Source: Patescibacteria group bacterium
GTDB taxonomy: Bacteria; Patescibacteriota; Microgenomatia; UBA1400; UBA1449
Direction of reading: 5' to 3'
Assembly (NCBI GenBank): GCA_050942955.1
Contig: JBMNOG010000006.1
Location: 932-64,931 of the forward strand
Length of the DNA stretch: 64,000 nt
The notes beneath the pieces are model-generated. The model did not search any database. It saw only the letters and a list, made by a program, of their open reading frames with translations, and had not been told where the DNA came from. Position numbers and translations under genes: made by a program. Positions 4,552 to 64,000 of the stretch are shown piece after piece (the stretch's first letter is position 1; every line of letters starts with the position of its first letter).

Positions 4552-4885
4552 AGTGTAAGCTAGTATAGAAAAGCAAAGCTATTATTTCAAGAGAAGAAAA
4601 GCTAAAAAGTACGAAGTTACAAGAGCGAGGTACCAAGTAGGAAGAACCAGGTGCAAGGTGCGAAGCGCTAATTCGAAGCTTTATAAAAGCGAAGGATGGA
4701 AATTTTGGAAGGATGTTCCTCATCTTTTTGAGTGAAAGGTACAGGCAGGCAGGCTAATAAGGGTGTCCTTTTTTTTCTCTTTCTTTGCGGAAAAGAGAAG
4801 AAAGTTTTAGGACACGCAGGAAAAATAGCATATTTACTTCAGGTAACCAAAGAAAGACGACAATTTTTTTATCAATCCAATTAAA

Positions 4886-4915
4886 AAAGGAGGCAAGGTG
4901 TACACCTTGCCTCCT
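4886..4915. terminator. Bidirectional rho-independent terminator downstream of rho.
   Basis: Perfect palindrome AGGAGGCAAGGTGTACACCTTGCCTCCT flanked by A6 on one side and T-rich sequence on the other, 20-50 nt after the rho stop. Confidence 0.7.
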
Positions 4916-4936
4916 TTAAAAAACTAACAAAATTGT

Positions 4937-6271
4937 TTACTTCCCTAAACTCTCCAGAAATTCCTGGTTGTTATCTGTTTTTGCCAGCCTCTCCATGAGA
5001 ATTTCGGTTCTTTCCTGAGCTCCCAGCATATCAATCATCGTGATCAGGGTTTTAATCTTGTCATATGTCTTTTTATCAAACAGAAGTTGATCCTGACGTG
5101 TCCCTGATTTCTGAACATCAATAGCAGGGTAAATACGGCGTTCAGCCAATTTCCTGTCAAGGTGAAGCTCCATGTTGCCTGTCCCCTTGAACTCTTCGTA
5201 GATAAGGTCATCCATACGGGAACCGGTATCAACTAACGCTGTACCAAGGATGGTCAGTGAGCCGGTTTTCTTACCATCATAGGTATCAAACTCTTCAAAG
5301 TTTCTGGCAGCTCCAAAGAAACGCTTGGGTGGGTACAAAGCAGCCGGGTCAAACCCTCCGGAAAGGGTCCTTCCAGATGTAGGAATAGCCAGGTTGTAGG
5401 CTCTAGCTAAACGGGTAATTGAGTCCAAAAGGATAACTACATGGTTACCAAGTTCAACTAAACGTTTCGCTCTTTCAAGAGCCAATTCTGCCACTTTTAC
5501 CTGTCTCTCAGGCGGTTCATCAAAGTTAGAAGCAGCTACTTCTCCTCTAATTGAACGACTGATATCCGTTACTTCCTCAGGCCGCTCACCCACTAAAACT
5601 GCCATTAAATACGAATCAGGATAGTTGGTAGTTAACCCATTCGCAATTTCTTTTAAGATTGTTGTCTTTCCAGCTTTAGGCGGAGAAACAATTAACCCTC
5701 TCTGACCTCTTCCCACAGGGGCCACCAAGTCAATAAGACGGGTGGAAAGTATTTCTTTTTTCGTTTCAAGGTTATACTGTTTATCAGGGTAAACAGGGAC
5801 AAGTCTATCAAACACTACCCGATTGCTTTCATTAAGTTTATCAACAGCAACACCGTTTACTTCAGTCACTTTAAGAAGTCCCCAGTAGCGCTCAGATTCC
5901 TTCGGACGGCGGGCGGGACCTTTAACCATATCGCCAGGCCTTAGACGAAAGCGGCGGATTTGGCTTGTTGAAATATAGACATCCCTGTCAGATGGAGCAA
6001 ACTCTGGTCGTAAAAGACCATGGCCATTGTGTTCCATATCCAGAACACCATAAACCTCTTCAGTCGGCACTCCAGCATCAGGGATAACTCGATCATCAAC
6101 CACGCCATCAAACCTTCTTCCTCCATTCCTCTTTGGACTTGGAGAGGGGGCAGATTTTCCGGATGGCTTAGAATCCATACCTACTAATTTATCAATATCA
6201 TCTGCATTAACAGAATTATCTGTTGTTTGATTTTTTTCTGAAGAAGAAGTAGAAGTCTTTGTTGGAGACAT
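4937..6271 (-). CDS. rho: Transcription termination factor Rho with a low-complexity N-terminal extension.
   Basis: Rho-specific CSD/RNA-binding region, Walker A GKT (PPKAGKTTIL) and a RecA-like core. 444 aa with an S/T/P-rich N-terminal insertion. Confidence 0.92.
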   Translation of the reverse strand: MSPTKTSTSSSEKNQTTDNSVNADDIDKLVGMDSKPSGKSAPSPSPKRNGGRRFDGVVDDRVIPDAGVPTEEVYGVLDMEHNGHGLLRPEFAPSDRDVYISTSQIRRFRLRPGDMVKGPARRPKESERYWGLLKVTEVNGVAVDKLNESNRVVFDRLVPVYPDKQYNLETKKEILSTRLIDLVAPVGRGQRGLIVSPPKAGKTTILKEIANGLTTNYPDSYLMAVLVGERPEEVTDISRSIRGEVAASNFDEPPERQVKVAELALERAKRLVELGNHVVILLDSITRLARAYNLAIPTSGRTLSGGFDPAALYPPKRFFGAARNFEEFDTYDGKKTGSLTILGTALVDTGSRMDDLIYEEFKGTGNMELHLDRKLAERRIYPAIDVQKSGTRQDQLLFDKKTYDKIKTLITMIDMLGAQERTEILMERLAKTDNNQEFLESLGK

Positions 6272-7048
6272 ACATCATCCTTTCATATATTAAAGTATTG
6301 TTTATAACTGCAAACGCTAATTTATGGTCATGCACCAGGTTTTGTATAAAAACTTAATTTACTAAACTTTGGTAAAGGGAAAGGAAACAGTTTACCAAGT
6401 GCACATGTGTTGTTTTTTATTCTTCTCTTACCATGAAAAAATAGGAATTTGAAAATGCAAATTTCGAGGAAAACGTAACGTTCTTAGCCTAACACAGCCC
6501 TTATCTCTTGTCAATTTTTGCTTTCGATACTCTAATCGGGATTCGAAAGCCTGCCCTACTCTCGAATCCCCATTACAAGCTCGATCTACCAGCTCACAAG
6601 TTGAATGTCACCACGTTAACTTCTTGACACCAGCACTAACTTTTGCTATGTTAGTTTTACAAGGTATTCTTTATTCCTGTCCTTATAAAGAATCCTTAAT
6701 TTAAGAGAGAGCATTGCTATTCGTCCACATTCTGCTGCCTGGTAGAATATAAAGGAGCGATAGTAATGCTTTCTTTTTTTGCTTCGAGCTGTCAATGTAT
6801 GCTTCCCTTTTAACAGGCTAAGCAAACGCCTTATATCTTCTATAATAACACCCAAAACAGCTCCTGTCAATCCTATAACATCGAGCAATTTCGGGTTTCC
6901 TTTTCTCCTGTTTTTAGTGCCTTTTTATGGGATATACAAAGAGCATTTATTGTATTCAAAAATAAGTTCTATAATTTATTTTATAATAAATAATACTTCG
7001 GTCTTTTTGTGGGTAATTTGTAATCTATTTGGAGGTTTTGTTGCGAAA

Positions 7049-10231: not shown

Positions 10232-11590
10232 TTAGTGTGAAGGAGAATACAAGAGACGGTGGCTGTTTTGGTGGACTGTCTTTTCCCAGGTATATTTACC
10301 TAGAGTAAGACGCACAAGCGCCCTTAGAGATGAAATAAAGAGCATTAGTTGGTACGGGAAAAATGTCAAAACAGTCGTTATAAAAACACCTAAAGGAAAG
10401 CGCAGGTTGTAGTACTTGCGAAGATCATACAATCCCAAGGCGTACATACCCAACTGCATTACTAAAAAGTACGCAGGCAGATATGAAAGTAACGCCAAAC
10501 CAACCGGAACCTGCAAAAATCTAGTCATAAGGGGTAGAAGCACCATAGCTACAAAACTGACATGCCTAAAAAGGGGTTGGGTTAGAATGTACAAACTCAG
10601 GTACTGCTGCTTTAGACTCTTAAACTTCAGCCACTGGCCTTTGAAAAGAATTTGTAAGTACCCGAAATCCCAACGGGAACGCTGCTTAATGAAAGCCAGT
10701 TCATCAACTGGAGTCTCTTCCAGAGTAGACAAATTTTCTTCGTATATAACACCAGTCTTAAAGTTGTGGTTAGATAGTCTGACCCCGATATCAGCATCTT
10801 CTGTTAGACACCCCTCGTCCCACTTCCCTACTGTTAGCAATGCCTCTTTTTTGATAAACACAGAGTTACCACCAAGGAAAGTAGTTTTATTTTTTGCCAT
10901 CATAGGCAGAACTGACTTGTACCAGAAGTAATACTCCAAACAGTTAATAGCTGAAAACCAGGTAGAGCCTACGTTAATAAGCTGGACCCCGGCCTGAACA
11001 ATACTAAGCTCGGTATCAGCAGCAAAAGCTTCAGATACGTGGGTTAAGATATCAGGATGAGGCTCGTCTTCAGCATCAAAGACAGCCACAATCTCGTGTT
11101 TAGCAAAGTGAGCGCCGATGTTTAAGCTGTAGGATTTAGTATTAGCTTCTCCGTCAATAGTAATGAGCCTGAAGTTATCGCGGTTTATTTGCGCTAATGC
11201 TTCTTCAGTTTTTGCAAGTGTTGCAGCATCATCTGCCCTTACTACTACCAAGACTTCATACATAGTTTTAGGGTATGAGATCCGGGACATAGCCTTAAGC
11301 GTGTCGGCAATAACTTTTTCCTCATTTCTGGCAGGAACAATCAGAGAAAACGTATAACTACCTTTTCCTGGCAAAATGTGTTTTTTGGCTTTAAGGCCTA
11401 ATAGTCTGCCGCTTTCTAAAAAGGTATATAACATTGAGTAGGTCGATAATGCTCCCTGACCGGTAAGAAGCAGTGTCAAAGCTAAAAGAATTGTGGATAT
11501 CAAAGGCAACTGAAACCAGACGGCCACGTAAAGGAAAAGGCTTAACGCCCAAAGAGGAAAGAATAGTAGTGCTAGTTTTTGTATATTCAT
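10232..11590 (-). CDS. Processive family-2 glycosyltransferase (polysaccharide synthase, cellulose/chitin-synthase-like).
   Basis: TM helices flank a GT-A domain with DXD (VFDAEDEPHPD), a TED motif (CLTEDAD) and the QxxRW processivity motif (QRSRWDFG). Confidence 0.75.
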   Translation of the reverse strand: MNIQKLALLFFPLWALSLFLYVAVWFQLPLISTILLALTLLLTGQGALSTYSMLYTFLESGRLLGLKAKKHILPGKGSYTFSLIVPARNEEKVIADTLKAMSRISYPKTMYEVLVVVRADDAATLAKTEEALAQINRDNFRLITIDGEANTKSYSLNIGAHFAKHEIVAVFDAEDEPHPDILTHVSEAFAADTELSIVQAGVQLINVGSTWFSAINCLEYYFWYKSVLPMMAKNKTTFLGGNSVFIKKEALLTVGKWDEGCLTEDADIGVRLSNHNFKTGVIYEENLSTLEETPVDELAFIKQRSRWDFGYLQILFKGQWLKFKSLKQQYLSLYILTQPLFRHVSFVAMVLLPLMTRFLQVPVGLALLSYLPAYFLVMQLGMYALGLYDLRKYYNLRFPLGVFITTVLTFFPYQLMLFISSLRALVRLTLGKYTWEKTVHQNSHRLLYSPSH

Positions 11591-45069: not shown

Positions 45070-45210
45070 CTTGACTTCCCTGTTCCGGCTTCGACCTATT
45101 TTCACAATGGGTTGCCCCACTACTATCGTCGGCGCTGAGGCGTTTAACGACTCTGTTCGGAATGGGAAGAGGTGGTGCCACCTCGCTCCAGAAACCGGAA
45201 CACGAAAGTC
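45070..45210 (-). rRNA. rrf: 5S ribosomal RNA (boundaries approximate, +/-10 nt).
   Basis: The reverse complement contains GTGTTCCGGTTTCTGGAGCGAGGTGGCACCACCTCTTCCCATTCCGAACAGAG...GCGCCGACGATAGTAGTGGGG, a 5S-typical helix I/loop C/loop E signature. It lies directly downstream of 23S. Confidence 0.8.
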
Positions 45211-45344
45211 AAGCTGAGTAATTTTCAATGTTCAGTGAATAACCTAATACCCAATTATTTGAAAATTGATAATTGTTAATTAATCATTAGCCCAAAGGGC
45301 TTTTTGCTCCTTTAAAAGTGAATAGAAGTTTACAGTAGGAAATG

Positions 45345-48310
<2,966 letters not shown>

Positions 48311-48504
48311 ACAAATAGCAAATGACAATCAAGATTACATTTGCCTACATCTTCTATTCACTTTTAAAAGAGCCAAAATCTCGCCAGCTAAATTGCAAAA
48401 ACACCAGTTTTTCTCAATCTGCCAGTCTGATTTCCTAACTCTTCAGTAGTTAGTCATTGCCGGCTAATAGTGCTTACTAACCTCCAATAACTAACAACCA
48501 AATG

Positions 48505-48577
48505 TGGACCGTGGGAGGATCGAACTCCCGACCTCTACATTGCAAATGTAGCGCTCTCCCAGCTGAGCTAACGGCCC
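48505..48577 (-). tRNA. tRNA-Ala(UGC) in the rRNA spacer.
   Basis: Reverse complement GGGCCGTTAGCTCAGCTGGGAGAGCGCTACATTTGCAATGTAGAGGTCGGGAGTTCGATCCTCCCACGGTCCA. It has the G3:U70 pair and anticodon TGC. Confidence 0.9.
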
Positions 48578-49099
48578 AGATAAGTTCCTATCATCTAAAC
48601 CCTAGATTGCCAGTTTTACCTAAAAGATACTTCTGGCTCAGCTGCCAGCTGATCCCATTTTAGCGGGACAAGGCTAACGGCCCAGAGTCTGTCCTCTTTG
48701 TATATCCACGTATATTAAAAGTGCTCTTGTGGCCCTAACTCTTTCTGAGACATGGCCAAAACTAAAAAAGTCTCCGTTAGGAGACTTGTAAAACCATGCA
48801 CTAAGCCAAAATCACCACCGCCAGCGACAAAATTGTTCAAATTTTGAATGAGACGATGTTGTTGTGATTAATGTTTTAGGCATGCAGAGTAAATCTCCTA
48901 ACATCTATACCGTATTCTATCAGACAAGTTGCCACCAAGTCAACGGATATTATTGATCAATTTAAAGATCTGTCAGATCTTAAATGGCTTATTCAGCTTC
49001 ATCCATTCATCAACTAAAAGATCAGGTGAGCTTGCCCATCGAAGGATCGGGCATGGAACACGGCTGAATAAGCTAACGTGGAGTAGCCTGATCCATAGG

Positions 49100-49173
49100 T
49101 GGGTGATCTTGGAGTCGAACCAAGGACCTCAGTCTTATCAGGACTGCGCTCTAACCAACTGAGCTAATCACCC
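49100..49173 (-). tRNA. tRNA-Ile(GAU) in the rRNA spacer.
   Basis: Reverse complement GGGTGATTAGCTCAGTTGGTTAGAGCGCAGTCCTGATAAGACTGAGGTCCTTGGTTCGACTCCAAGATCACCCA. The anticodon loop is CTGATAA (GAT). Confidence 0.9.
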
Positions 49174-49467
49174 AGGGATTCTTCTGTCTAGATATATACC
49201 TCAACAAAGAACTCTCTATTTTACCATGTTTTAAAAACCTTGGGCAGTCATTATATCATTCAAACTCAAAAAACTTCTCCACCATTGAAGCACCAGGATA
49301 CCAAAGATGTATATTGTGTTAGGCAAATAAATTGAGTACATTTTTTCTTGAGTAAAATTCAGAAACTTGCACTTGATACTTATAGTAGAATTATAAGGAT
49401 AGTTCACTCCTTCTTCATATACTTTAACTATAATTATTGAAAACATTACTAAATTAATGGAGATACC

Positions 49468-50085
49468 ATGGCTTTTACCCTTCCTCCACTTCCCTATGAT
49501 TACAATGCGCTTGAGCCTTCAATTGATGAAGAAACAATGCATTTTCATCATGATAAACATCACCAAGGGTATTTAAATAAGTTTAATGATGCCTTAAAGA
49601 AATATCCGGAGTGGCAAGAAAAATCTCTTGAAGAGATTATGGCTAACTTGGAAAAGCTGCCAGAAGAAGTAAAGACAACTGTCCGAAACAATGGTGGCGG
49701 CTACTACAACCATAATCTGTTTTGGGAAGTGATGAAGCCCGACGGCAGTGAGCCATCAAAAGAGATGCTCGCTATTTTAGAAAGCCGTTTTGGCGGCTTA
49801 AAAGAGTTTCAGGATGAGTTCAGTGCTATTGCCGCCAATCACTTTGCCAGCGGCTGGGCGTGGCTGGCTATGAAACCTAACGGCACCCTTACCCTCTATT
49901 CTACTGCCGGACACGATAACCCTCTCATGGTGGGTGAAAAACCTTTGTTAGTTTTAGATGTCTGGGAACATGCCTACTACCTTAAGTATAAAAATGACAG
50001 GGCTGAGTTTATTCGTAATTGGTGGAAGGTGGTTAACTGGGGGAAAGTTGAAGAGAATTATAATAAAGCAAAGGAGACCTTGTGA
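49468..50085 (+). CDS. sodA: Fe/Mn-type superoxide dismutase.
   Basis: Metal ligands and motifs FHHDKHHQGY and DVWEHAYY. 205 aa. SD-like GGAGATACC lies upstream. The gene sits inside the 16S-23S spacer on the strand opposite the rRNA genes. Confidence 0.9.
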   Translation: MAFTLPPLPYDYNALEPSIDEETMHFHHDKHHQGYLNKFNDALKKYPEWQEKSLEEIMANLEKLPEEVKTTVRNNGGGYYNHNLFWEVMKPDGSEPSKEMLAILESRFGGLKEFQDEFSAIAANHFASGWAWLAMKPNGTLTLYSTAGHDNPLMVGEKPLLVLDVWEHAYYLKYKNDRAEFIRNWWKVVNWGKVEENYNKAKETL

Positions 50086-50151
50086 TAACTAGGTAACTCT
50101 CTCCTCTCTATTCATATCTATTTATACATTTTATTAATAAAATGTATAAAC

Positions 50152-50179
50152 AAAAAAACCACCCGCTTGGGTGGTTTTT
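50152..50179. terminator. Bidirectional rho-independent terminator between sodA (+) and 16S (-).
   Basis: AAAAAAACCACCCGCTTGGGTGGTTTTTAAG: a GC stem with an A7 run on one side and a T5 run on the other. It is preceded by an AT-rich perfect palindrome TTTATACATTTTATTAATAAAATGTATAAA (50123-50151). Confidence 0.75.
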
Positions 50180-50310
50180 AAGAGAATGCAAGATGTGGAA
50201 GAAAAGCCTGTTAATCCTGGAGTTTGATCGGGAAAGAATCTTCCCTTATTGTTTCTTCTGATATTACTACCAGAATGGAAAATCCCGCGTGAGAGGGATT
50301 TACCAAAACT

Positions 50311-51828
<1,518 letters not shown>

Positions 51829-52032
51829 AAAAAAGTTCCCGCAATAGGCGGGACTATTTCTGAGTAAAGGAATTAACAGGTAAATTCAGATCCGCCAACT
51901 GGCAGATCGAATGATTTCTTCCACATCTTGCACTCCCGTTAGGGTCGTCTAAGCTTGCTAGCTTGAAAGTGAAGACAGGTTTAAAGTACAGATGTGATCG
52001 TAGTATTAACTTGTTAATGTACTCAAACAGTC

Positions 52033-54108: not shown

Positions 54109-55164
54109 ATGAACTACGACGATATTGTCCACATCCTTGGCGACCGAGCTGAGTATCTTCTTAACCACCAGTGTCAGAAAATCAGCAAAGAGTCTCTTCA
54201 CCTTCCTGGAGGGGATTTTGTTGACAGAGTATTCTCTCATTCTGACCGCAATCACAGAGTGCTGCGCAATCTTCAGTGGCTTTTTAGCAGCGGCCGCCTG
54301 GATGGTACCGGTTATCTCTCTATCCTGCCAGTAGATCAGGATATTGAACATACTGCCGGTTTTTCATTTGCACCTAACCCCATCTACCTTGATCCGGAAA
54401 ATATTGTAAAACTTGCCTGGGAAGCAGGCTGCAGTGCGGTTGCTTCAACCTTGGGAATTCTGGGAATTGTTTCCCAAAAGTATGCCCACAAAATTCCTTT
54501 TATTGTTAAAATTAACCATAATGAACTGGTAACATACCCCAACAAGCATGACCAGATCTTATTTGCTAGCGTCAAGCAAGCCTGGAACATGGGGGCGGTT
54601 GGTGTTGGTGCTACGATTTATTTTGGCTCAAAAGAATCTAACCGGCAGCTAGTTGAAGTCAGCCAAGCTTTTCAGGAAGCACATCAACTAGGGATGTTTA
54701 CCGTCCTCTGGTGCTATGTGTGCAATAGTGCTTTTGAAAAAGGCAACACTAACTATGAAGAAGCTGCTGATATCACCTCCCAAGCCAACCACTTAGGTGC
54801 CACCATTGAGGCTGATATTGTGAAGCAAAAACTTCCGACTTCAAACAAGGGCTTTGAAGTTATTAAGTTCGGCAAGTATTCACAAGAAATGTACGACAAA
54901 CTCGTTACCGATCACCCTATCGACTTGGTTAGATACCAAGTTGCTAACGGCTACATGGGTAGAATCGGGCTTATTAGTTCTGGTGGAGCTTCCGGAGATA
55001 ATGATTTTTACGAATCAATTAAAACAGCTGTTATTAATAAACGCGGTGGTGGCATGGGGCTTATTTTAGGTAGAAAAGCTTTTCAAAAACCTATGAATGA
55101 AGGGGTTCAGCTGCTTAACGCTGTTCAGGATGTATACAGGGAACCAAGGATTACTATTGCTTAG
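54109..55164 (+). CDS. Class I fructose-bisphosphate aldolase (DhnA/FbaB-type, DeoC/LacD aldolase superfamily).
   Basis: 351-aa TIM-barrel protein with conserved Schiff-base region ...[11 protein letters not shown]... and overall similarity to archaeal-type class I FBA. Confidence 0.75.
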
Positions 55165-56033
55165 GGTTTAAGCAGACAGTGTTTTGACGAGTATGCAACT
55201 ACTGCCTCTGCTGTTCCTGGCTTAAACTCCGGAGCTGAGTTTACTTCCAGAATGTATGGTTTATTGTTATCCTTATTAATAACAATATCTACTCCTCCAA
55301 GTGAATATCCCACAGCATTCTTTGCCTTTATTGCAAGTTGCAAAATTTCACTATCAACCCCACTTACTTTTAGCATCTCACGCCTTGCCCCCAGTGAAGT
55401 GTTATTTCGCCACTCCCGTTTCTGAATCCTGGTTCTTTTGATAACAGCTCCTATTATTTCTCCAACAACTGTAATTCTTAAATCATAATCATTTGGAACA
55501 AAACCTTGAAACAGGAATTCGATACTTCCATCGTGTTTAGTGATAAATCCCCCCAGTTCTTTCTCATCTTTAAAGAGAAAACAATCTGCTCCGTGGTCAC
55601 CAAAAATATGTTTAGCCACAACAGGAAAGCCTAGTTCTTTTTTAAGGAGAGAAACTGCTTGACTGCTCTTTGCGGCATTAAGTGGGAAAAGAATGCTTTT
55701 AGCAAAAGCTAGACCTTCCCGGGCAAAACAACAGTATTGGAATAGTTTATTGGTAGTGTTTCCAGTTTTAATCGTTTGCAGTAAGGGTAAGTCAGGATAA
55801 AGCCCTAGAACTGCCTGGTAAAGGGGGATGTTACTCCTCAATCCTCGAAAATATACTAGGTCAAAGCTCTTAACATTTAGTGCATTAAACAAAACAAATG
55901 ACTTCGTCTTACTAAGAATGAAACAAACATCTCTGAAACTAGCAAAGGATACCGACTTTCCTAAAGTACTTTGGAAGTACCCGGATACTTTTTCATCAAT
56001 TTCTTTAGGGAAAACAACTAATAGTTTTCTCAT
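55161..56033 (-). CDS. RimK-like ATP-grasp ligase (alpha-L-glutamate ligase family).
   Basis: ATP-grasp motifs [20 protein letters not shown] ... [17 protein letters not shown] ... [25 protein letters not shown]. The start overlaps the upstream gene by 4 nt. Confidence 0.75.
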
Positions 56034-56947
56034 AATTGCAGTTTTCTGAAGTTAAATAACAGTAGTGTCACAGCGTTTGTATGTTCAGCAAATTCAAATG
56101 AGTTATTTTCCTCTCTGAGGATATATCCTTTACTAAGACTGAAGTTATCTTCCACTCGCTTATTTACAGATTCAATATAGGCTCGGTTTTCCATCCCTAA
56201 CATCTTCATACACAATGCAACTTCTACATTTATATCCAACGACAACCTTGTAAAGATATCATCAGTCAATCTGTTAAAAGCTTCTCCTACCCACCTATAC
56301 TTAGCTCTTTGTACTTGTTGCTGGTAAAAGTTTGAGTCTCCGATAATTATATGAGTAAGTCCATAAACATAGTTATTAAAGATTTCATCATCTGCCAATA
56401 ACTTATTATTAAAGATCTCGGTAAAAAGGTTAAGGTAATCGTCAATAATATCAGCTATATTAAACTGCTTACTAAGATACGCTGTATTGGTAGCCGAAAC
56501 GGTAGCATAAAGCACGAACCTACTATCTGTCAGCACTTTTTCCGGATAAGCACTGAATAACTCCTGGCGCATTTGCTTCTTTAGCACCCCAAAAACATTC
56601 ATATAGTACATATACCAGATAAGACAGTGATAAGAGTAAAGATCTATTCTTCTTAACCATTGTTGTCTTTTTTGTGTATCATTTATTTTTCTGGACTTAT
56701 ATCTTTCAACTTCTCCTTGTTTCTTCTGAAAATAGTTTTTAGGATCTTCAAGGAATGAATTTATTTCTTTAATCCCCTTTTCTTTAGTATAGTCATACGC
56801 CAATTCAAAAAGCTGCTTTTTAAGATCTTCTTTTCCTGTAGCCAGCCATGCCCTATATAAAAAATGCCTCCCCTTGTCTTTGGGGAGTTCATTAATTTTA
56901 GTAGTGTATGTTTTAATAATTGATTCACTGATATATCTGATATCCAT
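56030..56947 (-). CDS. Hypothetical protein (305 aa, soluble, Y/F/N-rich) in the ATP-grasp cassette.
   Basis: No recognisable motif. It is translationally coupled to the downstream ATP-grasp gene. Confidence 0.5.
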   Translation of the reverse strand: MDIRYISESIIKTYTTKINELPKDKGRHFLYRAWLATGKEDLKKQLFELAYDYTKEKGIKEINSFLEDPKNYFQKKQGEVERYKSRKINDTQKRQQWLRRIDLYSYHCLIWYMYYMNVFGVLKKQMRQELFSAYPEKVLTDSRFVLYATVSATNTAYLSKQFNIADIIDDYLNLFTEIFNNKLLADDEIFNNYVYGLTHIIIGDSNFYQQQVQRAKYRWVGEAFNRLTDDIFTRLSLDINVEVALCMKMLGMENRAYIESVNKRVEDNFSLSKGYILREENNSFEFAEHTNAVTLLLFNFRKLQL

Positions 56948-56970
56948 ACATATACCCGTATTTCATTTCT

Positions 56971-58275
56971 TTACAGTTCATATTCCTCAACCTCTCCCGG
57001 GTCAATAACAAAGCCTTTAAGATATCTTCTCCCCACCAAAATTTTAGCTTTTAAGTGAGCTCGGTTAGCAACGTGAGCAAGCGCACGAATTTTCCTTCCC
57101 CTGAGCCAAAACTCAACCTCAATAACCGGCCTTTTTTCTTTTCCTAAAGATGATTCCACCTGCGTTTCATATAGTATATTTGACTTATTAAGTAACCCTA
57201 GCTCTGTAGCTAGTTTTTTATCTATACTAACGTTAAAAGCTCCTGTGTCCATTTTGGCCACCAGATCCATCTTCTTCCCTCCATCATATTCAAGTTGAAT
57301 ATTTTCGAATATTCCCAGAATTGGCCTTCCCTTCTCAATTTTTACTTTATCGGAAAATTGTTCAGCAAACAGAATTTCAGCAACCTCGATTCCTTTATAC
57401 GGCTGGGTTATGTCAAGATCATCTACTCTTCGCAGACGGCGCAACAATCCCTTTTGGTTAGCCAGTTGTATCTGAAGTCCAGGTTGATCGTTAAGCTCCA
57501 GAACCAAAGGACCTTTCTCTTCATCCAGGACAATATCTACACCCAAGTAACCGAGTCCAGATACTCGCTGAGTATCCACCGCTACTTTAAGAAGCTCTCT
57601 CCAGAACGGAATTCTCAAACCATTAACCTTCTTATTTGTTCCGGGAATATGAGTAATAACCTGATCGTAGTGCACACCATGAGTTGTAATTCCCGTTGCC
57701 ATATCAACCCCTAATCCAACCGCTCCCTGATGTAGGTTGGCTTTACCATCGCTCTCTTTGGTTGGTAGGCGCAGCATAGCCATAACAGGAATCTTATTAA
57801 AGACGATAACTCGAATATCGGGGGTTCCCCCTTTCGCATATCGGGAAAATTTGGGGTGAATTTTTACTCTTTCCTCGATAAAAGCCTTGTCAGGAGCTCT
57901 ATTTCTAGAGTATCTTCCTTCGATGATATCAGCAGCATGGAGTTTCAGATCATTAACCCTCACTTTTTGGCCATTCATAAGCACCCATTCTCCTGCATAT
58001 TCCAAAGGCTTCTTTACTACTAAAATCCCTTCTCCCCCATATCCTTCGCTGGGTTTTATAACAAAACCATTCCGCAAACTCAACCAATCAAATTCCTGAA
58101 TATCAGTGCTTGAGTTTAAAATCGTAATCAGTTTTGGATGAGGGATTTTATTTTTGCGAAGGACTTTTTTGGTCAATAGCTTTGAATCTGCTACTTTTCG
58201 ACCAAATTTTTTATTCAATCTTAGATAGCGTCGATTACGGGCATTCATACCAAGTATGTCGCTGAGCTTTGCCAT
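56971..58275 (-). CDS. RimK-related alpha-L-glutamate-ligase-like ATP-grasp enzyme fused to a C-terminal retropepsin-like (putative zinc-protease family) aspartyl-protease domain.
   Basis: N-terminal LGMNARNRRYL... region and an ATP-grasp core (PSEGYGGEGILVV, DIVLDEEKGPLVLELNDQPGL). The C-terminal domain contains the aspartic-protease signature KMDTGAFNVSI (DTGA). Confidence 0.65.
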   Translation of the reverse strand: MAKLSDILGMNARNRRYLRLNKKFGRKVADSKLLTKKVLRKNKIPHPKLITILNSSTDIQEFDWLSLRNGFVIKPSEGYGGEGILVVKKPLEYAGEWVLMNGQKVRVNDLKLHAADIIEGRYSRNRAPDKAFIEERVKIHPKFSRYAKGGTPDIRVIVFNKIPVMAMLRLPTKESDGKANLHQGAVGLGVDMATGITTHGVHYDQVITHIPGTNKKVNGLRIPFWRELLKVAVDTQRVSGLGYLGVDIVLDEEKGPLVLELNDQPGLQIQLANQKGLLRRLRRVDDLDITQPYKGIEVAEILFAEQFSDKVKIEKGRPILGIFENIQLEYDGGKKMDLVAKMDTGAFNVSIDKKLATELGLLNKSNILYETQVESSLGKEKRPVIEVEFWLRGRKIRALAHVANRAHLKAKILVGRRYLKGFVIDPGEVEEYEL

Positions 58276-58337
58276 AGTGTAAATAAGTCAGTATTTGTAA
58301 AGATTAGAGAAACAAATCGAGGTAAAGTCTATCTAAA

Positions 58338-59294
58338 CTATGATTGGACTAATTTTCTAAAGCGCCAGATCTCCAAGAGACGCAAGCCTGAGTACTGCTC
58401 TACCAGAGCTATGACAGTTACTAAGCTTATAACAAATAGTTCTGGATTAACCAAAGCAAACTTTTGTAGAATTTCCCAGTTCATAAGATAGAAACACATA
58501 ACAGCAACTATTAAAGTCTCTACTGTAATTATTAGTGCTTGGGAAAAACTGCGAGTGATCTGTAAGTCAAGAAAGTCTTCAACTAGTAAAATAAGAATTA
58601 AAATCGGGAAAATACCAATAGTAATTAATGCTTCAGCCCTTAACGCTGGAGATATTAGTAAAATACCAAGTACGGTTAATGATACAAACAGAATGAATAA
58701 AGCCATTCTCGGCAAGTACTGAATACGGGCTCGTTTAAGAAGCATTCTAAGCAGTGTAGCCACAAAAAGAATCGCAATAAAAAGAAAAATACCAACCGTT
58801 AACCCTGTAGCCAAAAACGCTACTGCCAAAAGTGCCGGAGTAAAGATACCAAAACTCTTTAATCCAACCACATGCCGAGCAATAACAACAACTGTAGCCA
58901 CTAATGGAAAAAGTAGTATTAGTACTATAGTATTAGCAGGCACTCCCTGTGCTATGGCTGATCTGATAGCATGGCGCCCAACATTAAGCGGATTCAGTTC
59001 CCCTACTGGATTTTCTTCAAGATATTTCTCTAATTTTCCTTTTACTTCAGGTTTTGGCTCAGTAAGGTCTGGTTCTTTTTCAACCACTTTTTTGACAATT
59101 GAAGAAGCAGAGGCCTCTTTTTTCTCTCCAGACAGTGATGCCTCTGCCGAGACACTCGCATCGAGAGAAATCTCAGGAGTAGGACTTGGTGAAGTTCGCG
59201 TCTGGGCTACAACAGGATCTGCAAAAAGGGAGAAACCTAGAAAGAGACAAGATAGAAAAAAAATACTATTCGTTATAAAAGCTAGCTTATTCAT
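58338..59294 (-). CDS. 7TM integral membrane protein (7TM module of the kind usually partnered with RimK-like ligases), with a signal peptide and an S/E/P-rich N-terminal linker.
   Basis: Signal peptide MNKLAFITNSIFFLSCLFLGFSLFADPVVAQ, a low-complexity linker of about 80 aa and 7 predicted TM helices. Confidence 0.6.
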   Translation of the reverse strand: MNKLAFITNSIFFLSCLFLGFSLFADPVVAQTRTSPSPTPEISLDASVSAEASLSGEKKEASASSIVKKVVEKEPDLTEPKPEVKGKLEKYLEENPVGELNPLNVGRHAIRSAIAQGVPANTIVLILLFPLVATVVVIARHVVGLKSFGIFTPALLAVAFLATGLTVGIFLFIAILFVATLLRMLLKRARIQYLPRMALFILFVSLTVLGILLISPALRAEALITIGIFPILILILLVEDFLDLQITRSFSQALIITVETLIVAVMCFYLMNWEILQKFALVNPELFVISLVTVIALVEQYSGLRLLEIWRFRKLVQS

Positions 59295-62200
59295 ATGGTA
59301 ATTATTATACCATCGCAGACAAATGCATGTTTCCCTCTAAGAAAATAAGGAAAGCATAAAGTTCACAATTACAGAAAGTACACCATCTATAAAACAAGAA
59401 ATGTGTTTTTATAGCATAGTTAAATGTTCAAAAGTAAAATACATGGCTCAAAAAGCATGAGAAAACAAGTAATGGGGAAAATACATATGGAAAATCTCAG
59501 TTACAGAACTAACTTCTGTTCTGTTTAAAGCAAATATATTGATTTAACAGTTAATTAAATAATGTATAAACAATTATTGTTTTATAAATCAATAAAATTT
59601 AATTTCTAAAATTTTGAAATCTTCATTTAAGCTTAATATTTTGAGTCACCATCAAATAAAAAATATTTAATTAAACGTGCCAAAATCTCGAAAACTGGTG
59701 TAACAAGAAAAATGGCCCAAAAAAACCATTAAAAATAAATAAATAAAGCAATGTAATAGAAAATGTAATACCTTCACCAGCAGCAATTTGTATTTAATAT
59801 AAGCACCACCACTTCAAAGCATAAGTAAATAGCTAAGAGGTATAATTTAGTATCAAGCAAAAACGGTAAAAAGGTATTGTCACTAGCAACTAAATGAAAA
59901 AATACATTTGTCAGCACACATTTGTAAGTTTTCCACATATAGCCACTGTTTGCTAGACTACTAGTACTATGTGTCTATGTTTGCTAGCTATTCGTTATAC
60001 TGTTTGATAGCACAAAATAAAAACATAAATAATTTTCACTACTTAAAAAATATACATTGACATTTTTCATCACAGAGTGCTTAAACACACACCATCACTA
60101 TAACATATTTAGTGGTGTCAATAATTACTAGATACAAATAATAACATCACTACTAATATAGTGATACTTTTTGCTGACATAAATTTGGAAGATTAAAATA
60201 ATATGTAATTATTTCGGTTATGCTTTTGTATTGCGACTCCAGCTCTGTTCGCTGTAACTTATGTCACCTGCCTTATGTTTTAATTGTAGTTGGATAAGAA
60301 AACAGTTAAGTATATTTCGGAAAATATTTTACTCATTTGATGGCGTAAACTAAATTTATATGCCATCACAATAATTACTACTTCAGCAAATATTATAGGA
60401 AGATCGAACAAATACCACCACTTTCAGTTTAGCGCAATATCTATCTCTAATTAACATTAAACTTACTTCTAAAAATGGCATCAGCACTGATTTTAACAGA
60501 GGTAGATTAATTCTAAGCCTGTTCTAGCTATTCTTGTAAAACTCACCTAGATTCCAGTCATCAGGGCTATTAGAAAAATACTGGTTTTTTATCAAGTTAA
60601 ACATTTTTTTAGTGTTTTGTAAGTTTTACTGCCACTGTCTGGCACAACAATAAGAGTAAATTCCTACCAAAACAGAATGCGGAAATTTTATTCTTTGTAA
60701 GGTTCTCATTTATATCTGAAAAGGAAAAAGTAATCTTACTCGTCTTTGCAAATTAATATACTCTATGTACTCAATTTATGCTGTAAAATAAGCTTATATT
60801 TAATGATTGAATGTCTAGCACTTACTTCCTGAGATTGACAGATTTAAGACGTGTTGAAGGAAAGTTCTTTGTTTACATATCCTAGTTTATATCCGCAAGC
60901 AGAAAATTTAGAATTACAGAGGAACACATTGTACTAAACACCGTCATTTTACCGATTTTTAAACACTTACACAAATTTACCTCTAGAACTTTGATCTTCC
61001 GATTGTCTAATTTAAGTTCCCCAGTTTAATAGGGGAACTTAAATTTAAGTAGAGATTGGTTGATAGGTAATATATATCAAAACAATATCTTCTATATCAA
61101 TTAGAATAAACTCTTTGTTTATGCCTTCTCATCCTTCATTTATACCAAAATCGACAGTTTCTAATAGATATATGTTTTTGTTTTGTTCGTACTATAGATT
61201 AACCGAAGTTTACGTTCTTATTATATAACCTATCTATTTAAGCATGTTCTCCTCTTCCTGAATAAAATAGCACTTTCCTTTAGTTAATGCTAGCTAATTT
61301 TTGAGCCCTTTTTTCTTGAAACAATAGTAATTACACAAACTGTAAATATTTTTTCATTTAAGCCATTCTTAAAAATTCCCAACCACTCTCTTATTGAATG
61401 TTTCACTTTTTTGTTTAAGTATCTTATTATTGGTGCACTGTCCTACTAGCACCTTATGTTTAAGCCATATTGGTAGTTATTATCTTAAAATTGTAAAGCT
61501 TGAATTATCTTAGTAGTTATCGTAATAACTTCGGTTGTACTTCTATTCTCCAAGTTAATGCTTATTCGTCATAGGTCAAGTTATAGGGATTTATTTATTT
61601 TAAAAAACTATACTTTCGTTCTTATTAATATATCTTATTATATCTAATTAAGTCAGTGCATTTAATTTACATAGATAGATGTGATCCTACTCTGTTGCGT
61701 ACAACCGTTTAAATTCTTTTGTTGGAATTCTTATATTTTTTCTTATATAAACTGTCGCATGATACTGTTAGAATTGGTTTGCTTCCCCACCAATCAGCTC
61801 ATCTTCTCTTTATTGATTAGAAGTTTACTTTTTTAACTGAGGTAAATCTTATAAAAGACATTCTAAACATAAACAATAAAGTAAAAGAGGTGAATCAAAG
61901 TAGTTTATTACATAGTATTTCAAAGACGAGACTTGGGGTTTCCAATTTTACTCTTTTTTCTAAAACTATAAGACATAAAACAAATATCATTTCAACACGT
62001 TATCCACAATTTAATACTCATTATTATAAGATAGTAACAATAGATATAAATTATTCCTTTATAATCAATAAAAATATGCTAATAACCATAATTTTATTAC
62101 AACTTAGGAAAAAATGAAATTGTTCACAATTTGTTGCCGTGCCTCTCTTCTCAAACCTAAGCCATCCAGATATTAAATATATGCAACCTTAGGTTTTTAT

Positions 62201-62424
62201 ATCTTTTTATATCATTGAATTGTTCCAGCTACTGATCACCTATCAAGATAATCAATTTATCTAGTATAAATTATAGGATTTAATTGACACTAATTTTTCA
62301 GGTCAAAGCTGCTAGTTTTATACATGCTCCCCTTTTTCCTATTTGACAGCGTGTGAAAATCTTTTTTATTATAGTAATAGGAAGAAATAAAAGTTATGCA
62401 AACTTATGCACTAACAGGCTAAAG

Positions 62425-64000
62425 GATGTCTGCCCAAAACAAGCTACTGTCCATCTCTCAAGCTTCTAAATACCTAGGTGTTTCAAACGACACCCTAAGG
62501 CGATGGGAAAAAAGGGGTAAAATCACTCCATTAAGAACCCTTGGCAATGTCAGACGTTATAGGATAGAAGATCTTCAACAATTAAAAACAAGAAAGGGCA
62601 CTCCTACAACGAAGGAGCTGATCCAGAAAACACACCAGGAGATAGCACAAATAAAGCAGACAATTAGTGAAAACCAAAAAGACAAGAGTCCTACTCCTAC
62701 TCCTACTCCTACTTCTACTCCAATTCAAACCTCCCCTAAGGTTGCAGCAGCTCAATCCCCTAGAGCGAACCAGGACATTGCAGAAGACTTAAGTGTTATT
62801 AAGCGTTTCCTCTATGGAATTGCATCCCAATTAAATGATGTAAAGCGCAGCCTACTCCAACAACAAGGGTCCCTTTCTCTCTCTCCTTCTAACTCCGATC
62901 TGTTAAATAACACTCAAAAGCGTCGACAAAGATTAATTCAGTACTCAACTATAGGTGGAAGTACATTAGTAATACTTCTGTTTCTTTTACTTATTCTCTC
63001 AAAACTATTTCCTCTTAATAATAAGATAAATAATATTGAAAAACTGGTAAGGACCTTGGATATTAATTATCAGTCCCCTCCCGATAGTGATGTTAGTATT
63101 GAGCCGGAAAACATAGAATCATTTCGAGTCGGAGAAGATAAAATTGTATTTGATGAAGCAGGTAATATCTATTTTTCCGGTGGCCTTACTGGGGGATACA
63201 TTGATACAGATACCAGAAACCTGATCATCAATTCCGGATTTGAACAGAACTCTTCAGGGAGACCTGATTACTACACGTATGCTGATGAGACTAACGAGCA
63301 GAATACCTTCATTTCTCAGGACATATCATTTGAAGGCAAAAACACCCTAAAACTTGAACCCAAAAGCGGTCAAATACTAACTGTAAAACCTCACCATCTC
63401 CCCCTTGATCCCCACAAACATTACACATTTACCGCATATGTACGAGCTCTTGGTCTGCGTAAAACCTACGTTTCCATCGGTTATGGGGATAGAGAAGGTG
63501 AAGATAAAGAAGTAATTCAGCTTGAAGGGAGTAGTTCGTGGAAACAAATTCGTTTTACTAAGACATTTAGTGAGAGTGATACGCCAAAAAGTGATGCTTT
63601 TTACATTTCAGCTCTTTCGCAAGATGGTGGAGGTGCTTTATACATTGATGGACTTCAGTTGGAAACTGGAACATTAGCTTCCGCATACAAACCTCAGGCT
63701 CTGCGAAGCGACGGCGTGGCAGTTTTTGATGAGGATGCACTTGTTCCGGTGATTACTAATACAGGATCGTTGGGAACGGGAACTCAACCCTTCAAAGAAG
63801 CATTTATAACAACTCAAAACGTATTTGGGGATCTGCAAGTTGGACAAGACGCTAGTATCTCCGGAAACCTTACTGTTACAGGCATAGTCGACTTAAACGC
63901 TATTACTGTTAGGAACAAGATTCTTTCACAGAATGACGGTATTTATACTGGTACTGGAGCTGGAGTTAAGCGTTTAGATCATCTGGGAAACCTGCTAAAT
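62425..64000 (+). CDS. MerR-type HTH domain fused to a TM helix and a large extracytoplasmic CBM4/9-like (galactose-binding-like) domain. The gene runs past the window end.
   Basis: ATG at 62425 is preceded by AAAGG. N-terminal LSISQASKYLGVSNDTLRRWEKRGKI (MerR/excisionase-type HTH). A P/T-rich linker and a TM helix (STIGGSTLVILLFLLLILSKLF). Then YYTYADETNEQNTFISQDISFEGKNTLKLEPKSG ... FTAYVRALG (CBM-like beta-sandwich). No stop occurs before position 64000. Confidence 0.6.

Follow-up and report, generated by a model that had tools for sequence, protein, structure and literature searches.

Systems in which an ATP-grasp ligase is encoded together with a retropepsin-like peptidase and a seven-transmembrane (7TM) protein bearing an inactive transglutaminase were reportedly predicted to make or modify peptides by Iyer, Abhiman, Burroughs and Aravind in 2009, whose work is said to be the source of the families PF14397 and PF14402. 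The four-gene cassette described here lies on the minus strand at positions 55161–59294 of a stretch of 64,000 nucleotides (nt) from a Patescibacteria group bacterium (GenBank assembly GCA_050942955.1, contig JBMNOG010000006.1, positions 932 to 64,931), referred to below as the window. It belongs to the same neighbourhood class, with a RimK-related ligase, a peptidase and a 7TM protein, as had been recognized in an original prediction made from the sequence and is borne out by matches to PF14397, PF08443, PF05618 and PF14402. The cassette is composed of two parts: a 7TM protein paired with a ligase–retropepsin fusion, a combination that recurs in many Patescibacterial genomes, and a DUF3541–ligase pair that appears to act as an exchangeable module. 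The closest known system is the rloABC operon of Pseudomonas, and RimK together with RimB represents a cytoplasmic analogue.

The rloABC operon of Pseudomonas aeruginosa has been investigated both genetically and structurally (Lormand et al., mBio 2025, PMC12239564). Its RloA proteases, which are secreted, cut stretches of eight or more glutamates by means of K46, R114 and R137; all three residues coordinate polyglutamate, and both cleavage and complementation depend on R114 and R137 (PMC12239564). In the rloA1-3 mutant the defects are severe: cells die under hypo-osmotic conditions, have an abnormal shape and are sensitive to beta-lactams, and biofilm is lost. Deletion of either rloB or rloC suppresses these phenotypes; 96% of the RloB hits were reported in Proteobacteria (PMC12239564). 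This 2025 study supersedes the view, expressed in the original prediction, that the class is functionally uncharacterized. Ribosomal protein S6 receives alpha-linked glutamates from RimK, which also makes free poly-alpha-glutamate. The cytoplasmic retropepsin RimB associates with RimK, stimulates its activity and shortens the poly-Glu tails (PMC11957791).

Analogously to rloABC, the window locus brings three functions together in one operon: an RloC-type ATP-grasp ligase (PF14397/TIGR02291), an RloB-type 7TM core (PF14402) and a PF05618 retropepsin. The cytoplasmic tail motif of the 7TM protein and the lysine and two arginines of the retropepsin are also shared. Whereas RloA is a separate secreted protein, the window retropepsin lacks a signal peptide and is attached to the C-terminus of the ligase. 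Whereas RloB carries a periplasmic inactive transglutaminase of ∼300 amino acids (aa), the window 7TM protein has in its place a signal-like segment and an acidic low-complexity linker. The window adds a DUF3541 gene and a RimK-like ligase gene to the rloABC set, and its host is a member of the Patescibacteria, unlike the mainly proteobacterial Rlo hosts. The likeness to RimK–RimB would lie in a cytoplasmic ATP-grasp ligase whose product is trimmed by a cytoplasmic retropepsin, a role that is predicted for the window protein, in which the covalent fusion mimics the RimK–RimB complex. Unlike RimABK, the fused ligase is of RloC type, no RimA is present and a membrane partner is obligatory; the second ligase is nearest to RimK among solved structures (RimK structures 7qyr/7qys and 5zct) but falls under the RimK family cut-offs. 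As far as can be checked, the fused form, the runs of several ligases, the 800-aa variants with a MATCAP domain and the DUF3541 module go beyond the systems of the 2009 description.

The 7TM protein and the fused ligase–retropepsin

The four open reading frames (ORFs) of the cassette are arranged head to tail on the minus strand, where the original prediction had placed them: the 7TM protein gene (59294..58338, 318 aa), the ligase–retropepsin fusion gene (58275..56971, 434 aa), the DUF3541 gene (56947..56030, 305 aa) and the second RimK-like ligase gene (56033..55161, 290 aa). Spacers of 62 and 23 nt separate the first gene from the second and the second from the third, and the DUF3541 stop codon shares a 4-nt ATGA overlap with the start of the second ligase. 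Translational coupling, which had been proposed for the unit, is thus supported for this last pair, but not for the others given their spacers. At its 3' end the second-ligase gene overlaps a convergent class-I aldolase gene by 4 nt. Promoter-like and terminator-like sites at the locus are not more frequent than in shuffled controls.

The ligase domain of the fusion protein spans aa 5–288 (57412..58263, minus strand). It matches PF14397 (ATPgrasp_ST) with 227 bits (E-value 3e-67, cut-off 31.4) and the alpha-L-glutamate ligase-like model TIGR02291 with 293.7 bits (E-value 1e-87) over 285 of 317 positions, a score lying slightly below the hypothetical-equivalog cut-off of 314.2 bits. An AlphaFold model of the whole protein, with a predicted local distance difference test (pLDDT) score of 83.8, finds ArgX/LysX and RimK as its top Foldseek matches in the PDB, at ∼1e-10. 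An alignment of 50 homologues (52–94% identity) reveals K74, D247, E260 and N262 among the invariant ligase residues, and the ATP-grasp hallmarks, namely the ATP-binding lysine and the magnesium-binding D and E-x-N, are conserved in both window ligases. The closest named relatives of the fusion protein belong to Candidatus Beckwithbacteria.

The retropepsin domain of RimB/RloA type occupies aa 323–427 (56995..57309, minus strand), with a DTGA active site at aa 343–346 (57238–57249, minus strand) that is conserved in the 50-sequence alignment. On scanning the full-length protein, residues 337–427 match protease models below threshold only; when the domain is scanned alone, PF05618 is matched with 27.8 bits against a cut-off of 27, and each of the 22 homologous domains tested gives matches to PF05618, Asp_protease_2 and gag-asp_proteas. 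Searching the PDB with a domain profile retrieves 9g59/9g58 (6e-7), 2pma and the Rickettsia retropepsin ApRick. The best structural match in BFVD is a 127-aa phage 'acid protease' (TM-score 0.76, root-mean-square deviation 2.4), accompanied by PF05618-type phage proteins and then by retroviral, caulimoviral and DDI1 proteases. A PDB fold search with the whole fusion model returns only ATP-grasp proteins in its top 50, without the protease domain among them. K341, D343, T344, G345, A346, R382, R405 and G415 are invariant in the 50 homologues, and an LVGRR motif, of the h-h-G-R-x type typical of the RimB/RloA family, is conserved near the C-terminus (aa 413–417). The retropepsin domain is therefore real, as had been proposed from the DTGA motif, and from its conserved residues it looks catalytically intact. 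K341/D343, R382 and R405 align with K24/D26, R94 and R117 of 9g59, and the spacing of K341, R382 and R405 from the catalytic aspartate fits RloA K46, R114 and R137 within two residues.

The 318-aa product of the first gene (58338..59294, minus strand) matches PF14402 (7TM_transglut) at aa 124–315 with 108 bits, the cut-off being 25 bits. The NCBIfam RloB model NF052267 aligns over its positions 312–507 only, that is the last 196, with 81 bits against a cut-off of 900, and no transglutaminase domain is matched in Pfam and NCBIfam profile scans. Hydropathy points to a hydrophobic signal-like segment at aa 6–29 and to seven transmembrane (TM) segments between aa 120 and 298; between these lies a linker of 84 aa (aa 32–115) whose composition is rich in E, S, K and P. 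The absence of a transglutaminase, the signal-like segment and the linker were all anticipated in the original prediction. Directly after TM7 the protein displays the motif GLRLLEIWRF (aa 303–312; 58359..58388, minus strand), predicted to be cytoplasmic. The pattern G-h-R-h-x-[ED]-x-x-[RK]-F is found at this place in 86 of 87 7TM homologues, from Patescibacteria to Methylococcales, and its conservation makes the GLRLxExxRF tail motif a candidate docking site for the ligase.

Acidic C-terminal tails follow just after the conserved tail helix in 11 of the 87 7TM homologues. Some of these are pure Glu runs (EEEE, EEEEE, EEDEEE), for instance in loci L015, L044, L061 and L062, and such encoded runs on a minority of tails might hint at the tail as a site of glutamylation. 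As a general glutamylation acceptor, the 7TM tail was considered and rejected: acidic tails are limited to these 11 and the window protein ends in RFRKLVQS.

Relatives of the fusion protein are present at no fewer than 595 loci in species-representative genomes. The tallies given here refer to the best 80, in which genes were called simply as longest ORFs and then tallied with hidden Markov models. These loci are mostly labelled as Patescibacterial (Woese-, Shapiro-, Levy-, Moran-, Pacei-, Dojka-, Kerfeld-, Falkow-, Peregrini-, Peri- and Saccharibacteria). A 7TM gene is located directly upstream of the ligase, on the same strand, at 74 of the 78 loci with upstream sequence, the median gap being 6 nt. 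The protease domain is present on 65 of the 80 ligases, and one to three further RimK-like ligases follow at 46 of the 80 loci. It follows from these tallies that the fusion, the short 7TM protein and the extra ligase are the common form among relatives. DUF3541 is found at only two of the 80 loci, and its pairing with a RimK-like ligase, although met again in other lineages, is the rare and truly unusual element of the window cassette. Of the peculiarities originally listed, the fusion, the transglutaminase-less 7TM protein and the extra ligase thus turn out to be usual, whereas the 305-aa protein, now assigned to DUF3541, keeps its singularity. The canonical three-gene rloABC arrangement, with a secreted protease, a 521-aa RloB and a 320-aa RloC, was recovered in the Methylococcales genome L083.

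Other arrangements were observed among the relatives. A Rubrobacteraceae metagenome-assembled genome (MAG) encodes a 7TM protein whose N-terminus bears a fused retropepsin, presumably on the outer side of the membrane (L089:4799–5953), followed by a separate ligase and a second stand-alone retropepsin. A relative of ∼800 aa (L045:3474–5873) combines ATPgrasp_ST, retropepsin and a carboxypeptidase domain of the MATCAP family (PF08014). ORFs of ∼785–825 aa occupy the position of the ligase gene also in L074, L075, L076, L085, L087 and L088, the Pfam scan having covered L045. The L045 protein accommodates a ligase and two different 'erasers' in one chain, a situation reminiscent of the enzymes acting on tubulin tails, where TTL/TTLL ATP-grasp ligases that add Glu or Tyr are paired with peptidases that remove them, MATCAP carboxypeptidases included. 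This is an analogy only: the window protein has neither a MATCAP domain nor a tubulin-like substrate, and homology of the whole system to the tubulin-tail enzymes is not claimed. Seven loci labelled Saccharibacteria, Dojkabacteria or Patescibacteria group (L064–L067, L070, L078 and L079) contain a 7TM gene and then four ATP-grasp genes (∼490, 326, 565 and 315 aa), the first of which has a C-terminal region without a retropepsin-profile match at 1e-4. In L003 a 65-aa ORF without a Pfam hit (11092–11289) lies directly downstream of two RimK-like genes on the opposite strand and adjoins the core pair; a small carrier or substrate protein is a possible identity for its product. Third-party annotation MAGs entitled 'uncultured Gammaproteobacteria/Pseudomonadales/Bdellovibrionales bacterium' account for a number of Patescibacterial-looking loci (L011–L015, L017, L022, L024–L026, L030–L032, L036, L050 and others), and these titles are probably mislabelled.

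DUF3541 and its ligase partner

The 305-aa protein (56030..56947, minus strand) had been regarded as unannotatable. It matches the family DUF3541 (PF12060) with 97.1 bits against a cut-off of 28.2, over model positions 6–307 of 330, and a protein of 100% identity is deposited at NCBI from a Patescibacteria group bacterium MAG as a DUF3541 domain-containing protein. The family is small, with 677 representatives among 1.84 billion. The AlphaFold model is all-helical (pLDDT 94.9, predicted TM-score 0.93), and a Foldseek search of the PDB yields no neighbour better than an E-value of 0.1. Class-II terpene cyclases and complement C5 chains, with the C5 TE domain as one entry, are the best of these weak matches, and they suggest that the modelled fold may be an alpha/alpha toroid. 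The motifs RHFLYR, YGLTHIIIG, LDINxE, GYIxRE and FAEHTNA are conserved, and this pattern suggests a binding or active site. Approximately half of the DUF3541 members have a hydrophobic N-terminal extension and look exported; the Patescibacterial members are devoid of it, and no signal peptide is found on the window protein. DUF3541 was also considered as the protein substrate of the ligases and judged unlikely in this role, as its C-termini are neither conserved nor acidic and its conserved polar residues resemble a binding or active site.

The second ligase (55161..56033, minus strand) is a divergent RimK-like ATP-grasp protein that matches PF08443 (RimK) with 69 bits against a cut-off of 21. 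DUF3541 genes adjoin RimK-like ligase genes, either overlapping or nearly abutting them, in the window and in L005, L006, L008, L009, L091 and L093. The full four-gene order recurs in four of these loci, L005 (from a sister genome), L006, L008 and L009, in at least three kinds of flanks, so that the conservation of the gene neighbourhood extends beyond the window. In L091 the DUF3541 gene and its ligase are convergent with the core pair; in L093 a ligase, DUF3541 and another ligase are likewise convergent with it; and L092 presents the 7TM protein, the fusion and DUF3541, the second ligase being missing. L007, whose genome does not look Patescibacterial, has DUF3541 beside a canonical RimK, recognizable by its Rimk_N domain, and RimB. 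Two independent fusions join DUF3541 to ATP-grasp sequences in a single protein: a RimK fragment in L015 (7305–8867, 521 aa) and an ATP-grasp domain in P0265 (803 aa).

Comparison of the window with L005 points to exchange. The identity is 93.8% for the fusion protein and 72.8% for the 7TM protein, and only 38.4% for DUF3541 and 28.4% for the second ligase. At the nucleotide level, similarity extends from 59117 to 56816, is lost across the module genes and resumes at 55178, in the aldolase gene. A further relative, L001, is syntenic (7TM protein, fusion, aldolase, MnmA and SodA) but is without DUF3541 and the second ligase. Moreover, the ligases closest to the window second ligase are those encoded behind DUF3541 at the distant loci L006, L008 and L009. 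The swap in L005, the absence from L001 and the similarity to distant ligases indicate that the DUF3541–ligase pair acts as an exchangeable accessory module. DUF3541 is tied to RimK-like ligases by this swap, by two independent fusions and by the recurring adjacency of the genes. In L005 an extra gene of 559 aa (4809–6485), which lacks a Pfam match as well as a window counterpart, follows the RimK-like ligase.

The individual cassette proteins are already public under generic names. Within the literature searched, no paper was found that names DUF3541, PF14397 or PF14402, that gives a function or context for DUF3541, that links RimK-type ligases to Patescibacteria or that describes the fused architecture or multi-ligase cassettes. 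The Patescibacterial architecture and the DUF3541 context are new within that literature.

Proposed mechanism and competing explanations

On balance, it seems somewhat probable that the cassette serves the membrane-associated making and trimming of acidic, poly-Glu-like chains on some acceptor. This estimate holds for the mechanism in general, and far less confidence attaches to any particular acceptor or to the part played by DUF3541. The identities of the domains, their intact catalytic motifs, the linkage of the genes and the exchange of the module are shown, whereas the functional steps that follow are inferred. Ligation and proteolysis of poly-Glu type, as originally put forward, remains the best inference by analogy with the Rim and Rlo relatives and from the conserved K341, R382 and R405. 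The RloB-type 7TM protein would be the fixed partner, its tail helix tethering the RloC-type ligase to the cytoplasmic side of the membrane. The ligase, driven by ATP, would add alpha-linked acidic residues, most likely glutamate, stepwise onto a carboxylate acceptor; free peptides, protein C-termini and envelope precursors are conceivable in this role. The fused retropepsin may pair with a second copy within a ligase oligomer to give a two-aspartate active site and would then cut the acidic chain back in the cytoplasm, setting chain length and turnover in a RimB-like manner. Since the protease forms one chain with a cytoplasmic ligase, trimming is assigned to the cell interior, in agreement with RimB and in contrast to the secreted RloA. 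The further suggestion of membrane export or signalling finds no direct support. The suppression of the rloA1-3 phenotypes by deletion of rloB or rloC implies that ligase and 7TM protein make something that the protease must remove, and that both belong to one pathway, upstream of the protease. DUF3541 and the second ligase, separate and horizontally exchangeable, would ligate residues to the same product or otherwise tailor it, in a second step that varies between lineages, with DUF3541 probably as a substrate-holding or hydrolytic partner of the ligase. By analogy with the Pseudomonas rlo mutants, the physiological output is likely to be cell-envelope or osmotic homeostasis.

Several observations weigh against this interpretation. 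Even in Pseudomonas, any amino acid or acceptor named for RloC-type ligases is putative. The protease lies outside the membrane both in Proteobacteria and in the actinobacterial locus L089; should the substrate of these proteases be extracellular, the cytoplasmic protease predicted for the window would follow a different logic. The fusion protein narrowly misses the TIGR02291 cut-off, and the second ligase scores far under the RimK equivalog cut-offs. The correspondence to the polyglutamate-binding residues of RloA is one of motif and spacing, not of direct alignment with RloA, and ∼27 residues fewer separate DTGA from R382 than in RloA and 9g59, so that the flap, and perhaps the specificity, may differ. 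Furthermore, about half of the DUF3541 proteins elsewhere appear exported, and with no significant structural neighbour for the model the role given to DUF3541 is a guess.

A rather unlikely alternative, overlapping with the reading above but specifying the acceptor, is that the cassette tailors the cell wall: the ligases would modify the stem peptides of peptidoglycan or lipid-linked precursors, the 7TM protein would present or flip them, and the protease and DUF3541 would edit them. Cell-shape defects, beta-lactam sensitivity and hypo-osmotic lysis upon loss of rloA1-3 led the authors of that study to suggest a peptidoglycan link (PMC12239564). The gene neighbourhoods are divided on the matter. 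The core pair lies beside Ddl, a Mur ligase and alanine racemase in L003 and beside a class A penicillin-binding protein and an M23 peptidase in L009, and in P0149 DUF3541 is fused to a serine beta-lactamase/DD-peptidase-like domain; nevertheless, the flanks vary among loci, and in the window they consist of an aldolase, MnmA and an rRNA operon. The proteins themselves argue against cell-wall tailoring, as the conserved basic residues of the protease point to acidic runs, which are not a known feature of stem peptides, and profile scans of NCBIfam type give no Mur/Fem-type match for either window ligase.

It is decidedly unlikely that the second ligase is a true RimK acting on ribosomal protein S6, with DUF3541 as its RimA-like regulator and the fusion and 7TM genes as unrelated neighbours. 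Among solved structures, RimK proteins are indeed the best relatives of the 290-aa ligase, first of all P. aeruginosa RimK (7qyr, 2e-8), to which its nucleotide- and magnesium-binding motifs PVVAK, GVDIV and ILEVNSAPE align, and L007 does place DUF3541 next to a canonical RimK and RimB. The ligase nevertheless passes only the general PF08443 domain threshold and misses the RimK family and equivalog cut-offs (97.9 bits against 143.4 for TIGR00768 and 35.7 against 331 for PRK10446). The DUF3541–ligase pair co-locates with the 7TM–fusion pair at 10 of the 12 DUF3541 loci examined, in three orientations, which speaks against chance neighbours; its absence from the close relative L001 and its replacement in L005 would be unexpected for ribosome modification.

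Production of a graspetide-like peptide that is made by the ribosome and modified after translation, with a small precursor, ATP-grasp maturases, the retropepsin as leader peptidase and export through the 7TM protein, appears very unlikely. Up to four ATP-grasp genes in a row at loci labelled Saccharibacteria and Dojkabacteria, the 65-aa ORF adjoining two RimK-like genes in L003 and weak matches of the second ligase to MvdD and MvdC maturase models (E-values 2e-5 and 5e-3) would fit such a pathway. The maturase scores are however negligible (23.8 against a cut-off of 475), and both ligases are far nearer to RimK/RloC. In addition, the cassette has no room for a precursor gene, with spacers of only 62 and 23 nt and then an overlap, and no conserved small ORF accompanies the pair across the loci examined (L001, L003 and L005–L009).

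Glutamylation of a cofactor (MptN/CofF-like) or of an amino-group carrier of LysW type (LysX/ArgX-like) is likewise very unlikely: although the second ligase matches LysX_arch (80 bits) and MptN (71 bits) and ArgX/LysX head the fold matches of the fused ligase domain, these scores are far under the equivalog thresholds of 275.6 and 350. The loci examined contain neither a gene for a LysW-like carrier nor one of the lysine, arginine, F420 or methanopterin pathways, and this reading leaves the obligatory 7TM partner and the protease domain unexplained.

Genomic surroundings and biological meaning

On the far side of the 7TM gene, the window contains an AT-rich, ORF-poor stretch of ∼3.2 kilobases (kb) (59295–62480) with no ORF longer than 75 aa. 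Its G+C content is ∼29% at 60–62 kb, compared with 34% at 58–60 kb. Tandem, direct and inverted repeats and Rfam families were sought in this interval and none was found. The stretch separates the 7TM gene from a large divergent gene whose start is close to 62480 and which continues past the end of the window; this gene is homologous to that of a 2131-aa protein with LVIVD/MerR hits in L001, where a comparable gene-free gap of ∼2.4 kb exists. So long a gap upstream of the 7TM gene is unusual for a compact genome. The rRNA operon, at 45083–51831 on the minus strand, comprises 16S (50317–51831), tRNA-Ile, tRNA-Ala, 23S and 5S genes, and a gene for an Fe/Mn superoxide dismutase is inserted on the plus strand between 16S and tRNA-Ile (49468–50085). 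SodA is near the cassette in L001 also.

The wider significance concerns the reach of the Rlo system. The connection of Rlo with biofilm formation, osmotic tolerance and beta-lactam resistance in Pseudomonas dates only from 2025, and the system was reported as essentially proteobacterial; a two-gene form widespread in the ultra-small, monoderm-like Patescibacteria extends its reach. This form argues that the 7TM core with its cytoplasmic tail, and not the transglutaminase, is the indispensable partner of the ligase. A ligase and protease in one polypeptide is moreover a simpler biochemical object, as synthesis and cleavage of the product should reside in one and the same protein.

A bolder extension, quite unlikely as a whole, would make the 7TM protein and the fused ligase–protease a widespread and possibly near-universal Patescibacterial machine that builds and trims lineage-specific acidic peptide chains at the membrane. 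A swappable downstream cassette, with one to three RimK-like ligases, DUF3541 or MATCAP, would diversify the product in the manner of capsule and O-antigen loci, perhaps with a role in contacts with host cells, and DUF3541 would be a new class of enzyme or adaptor dedicated to ATP-grasp peptide ligases.

The link to RimK-like ligases provides the orphan family DUF3541 with its first testable functional context. The conserved tail motif of the 7TM protein is a useful product of the comparison as a candidate docking site, and the variable ligase cassettes that follow a conserved core represent a natural experiment on what these ligases add.

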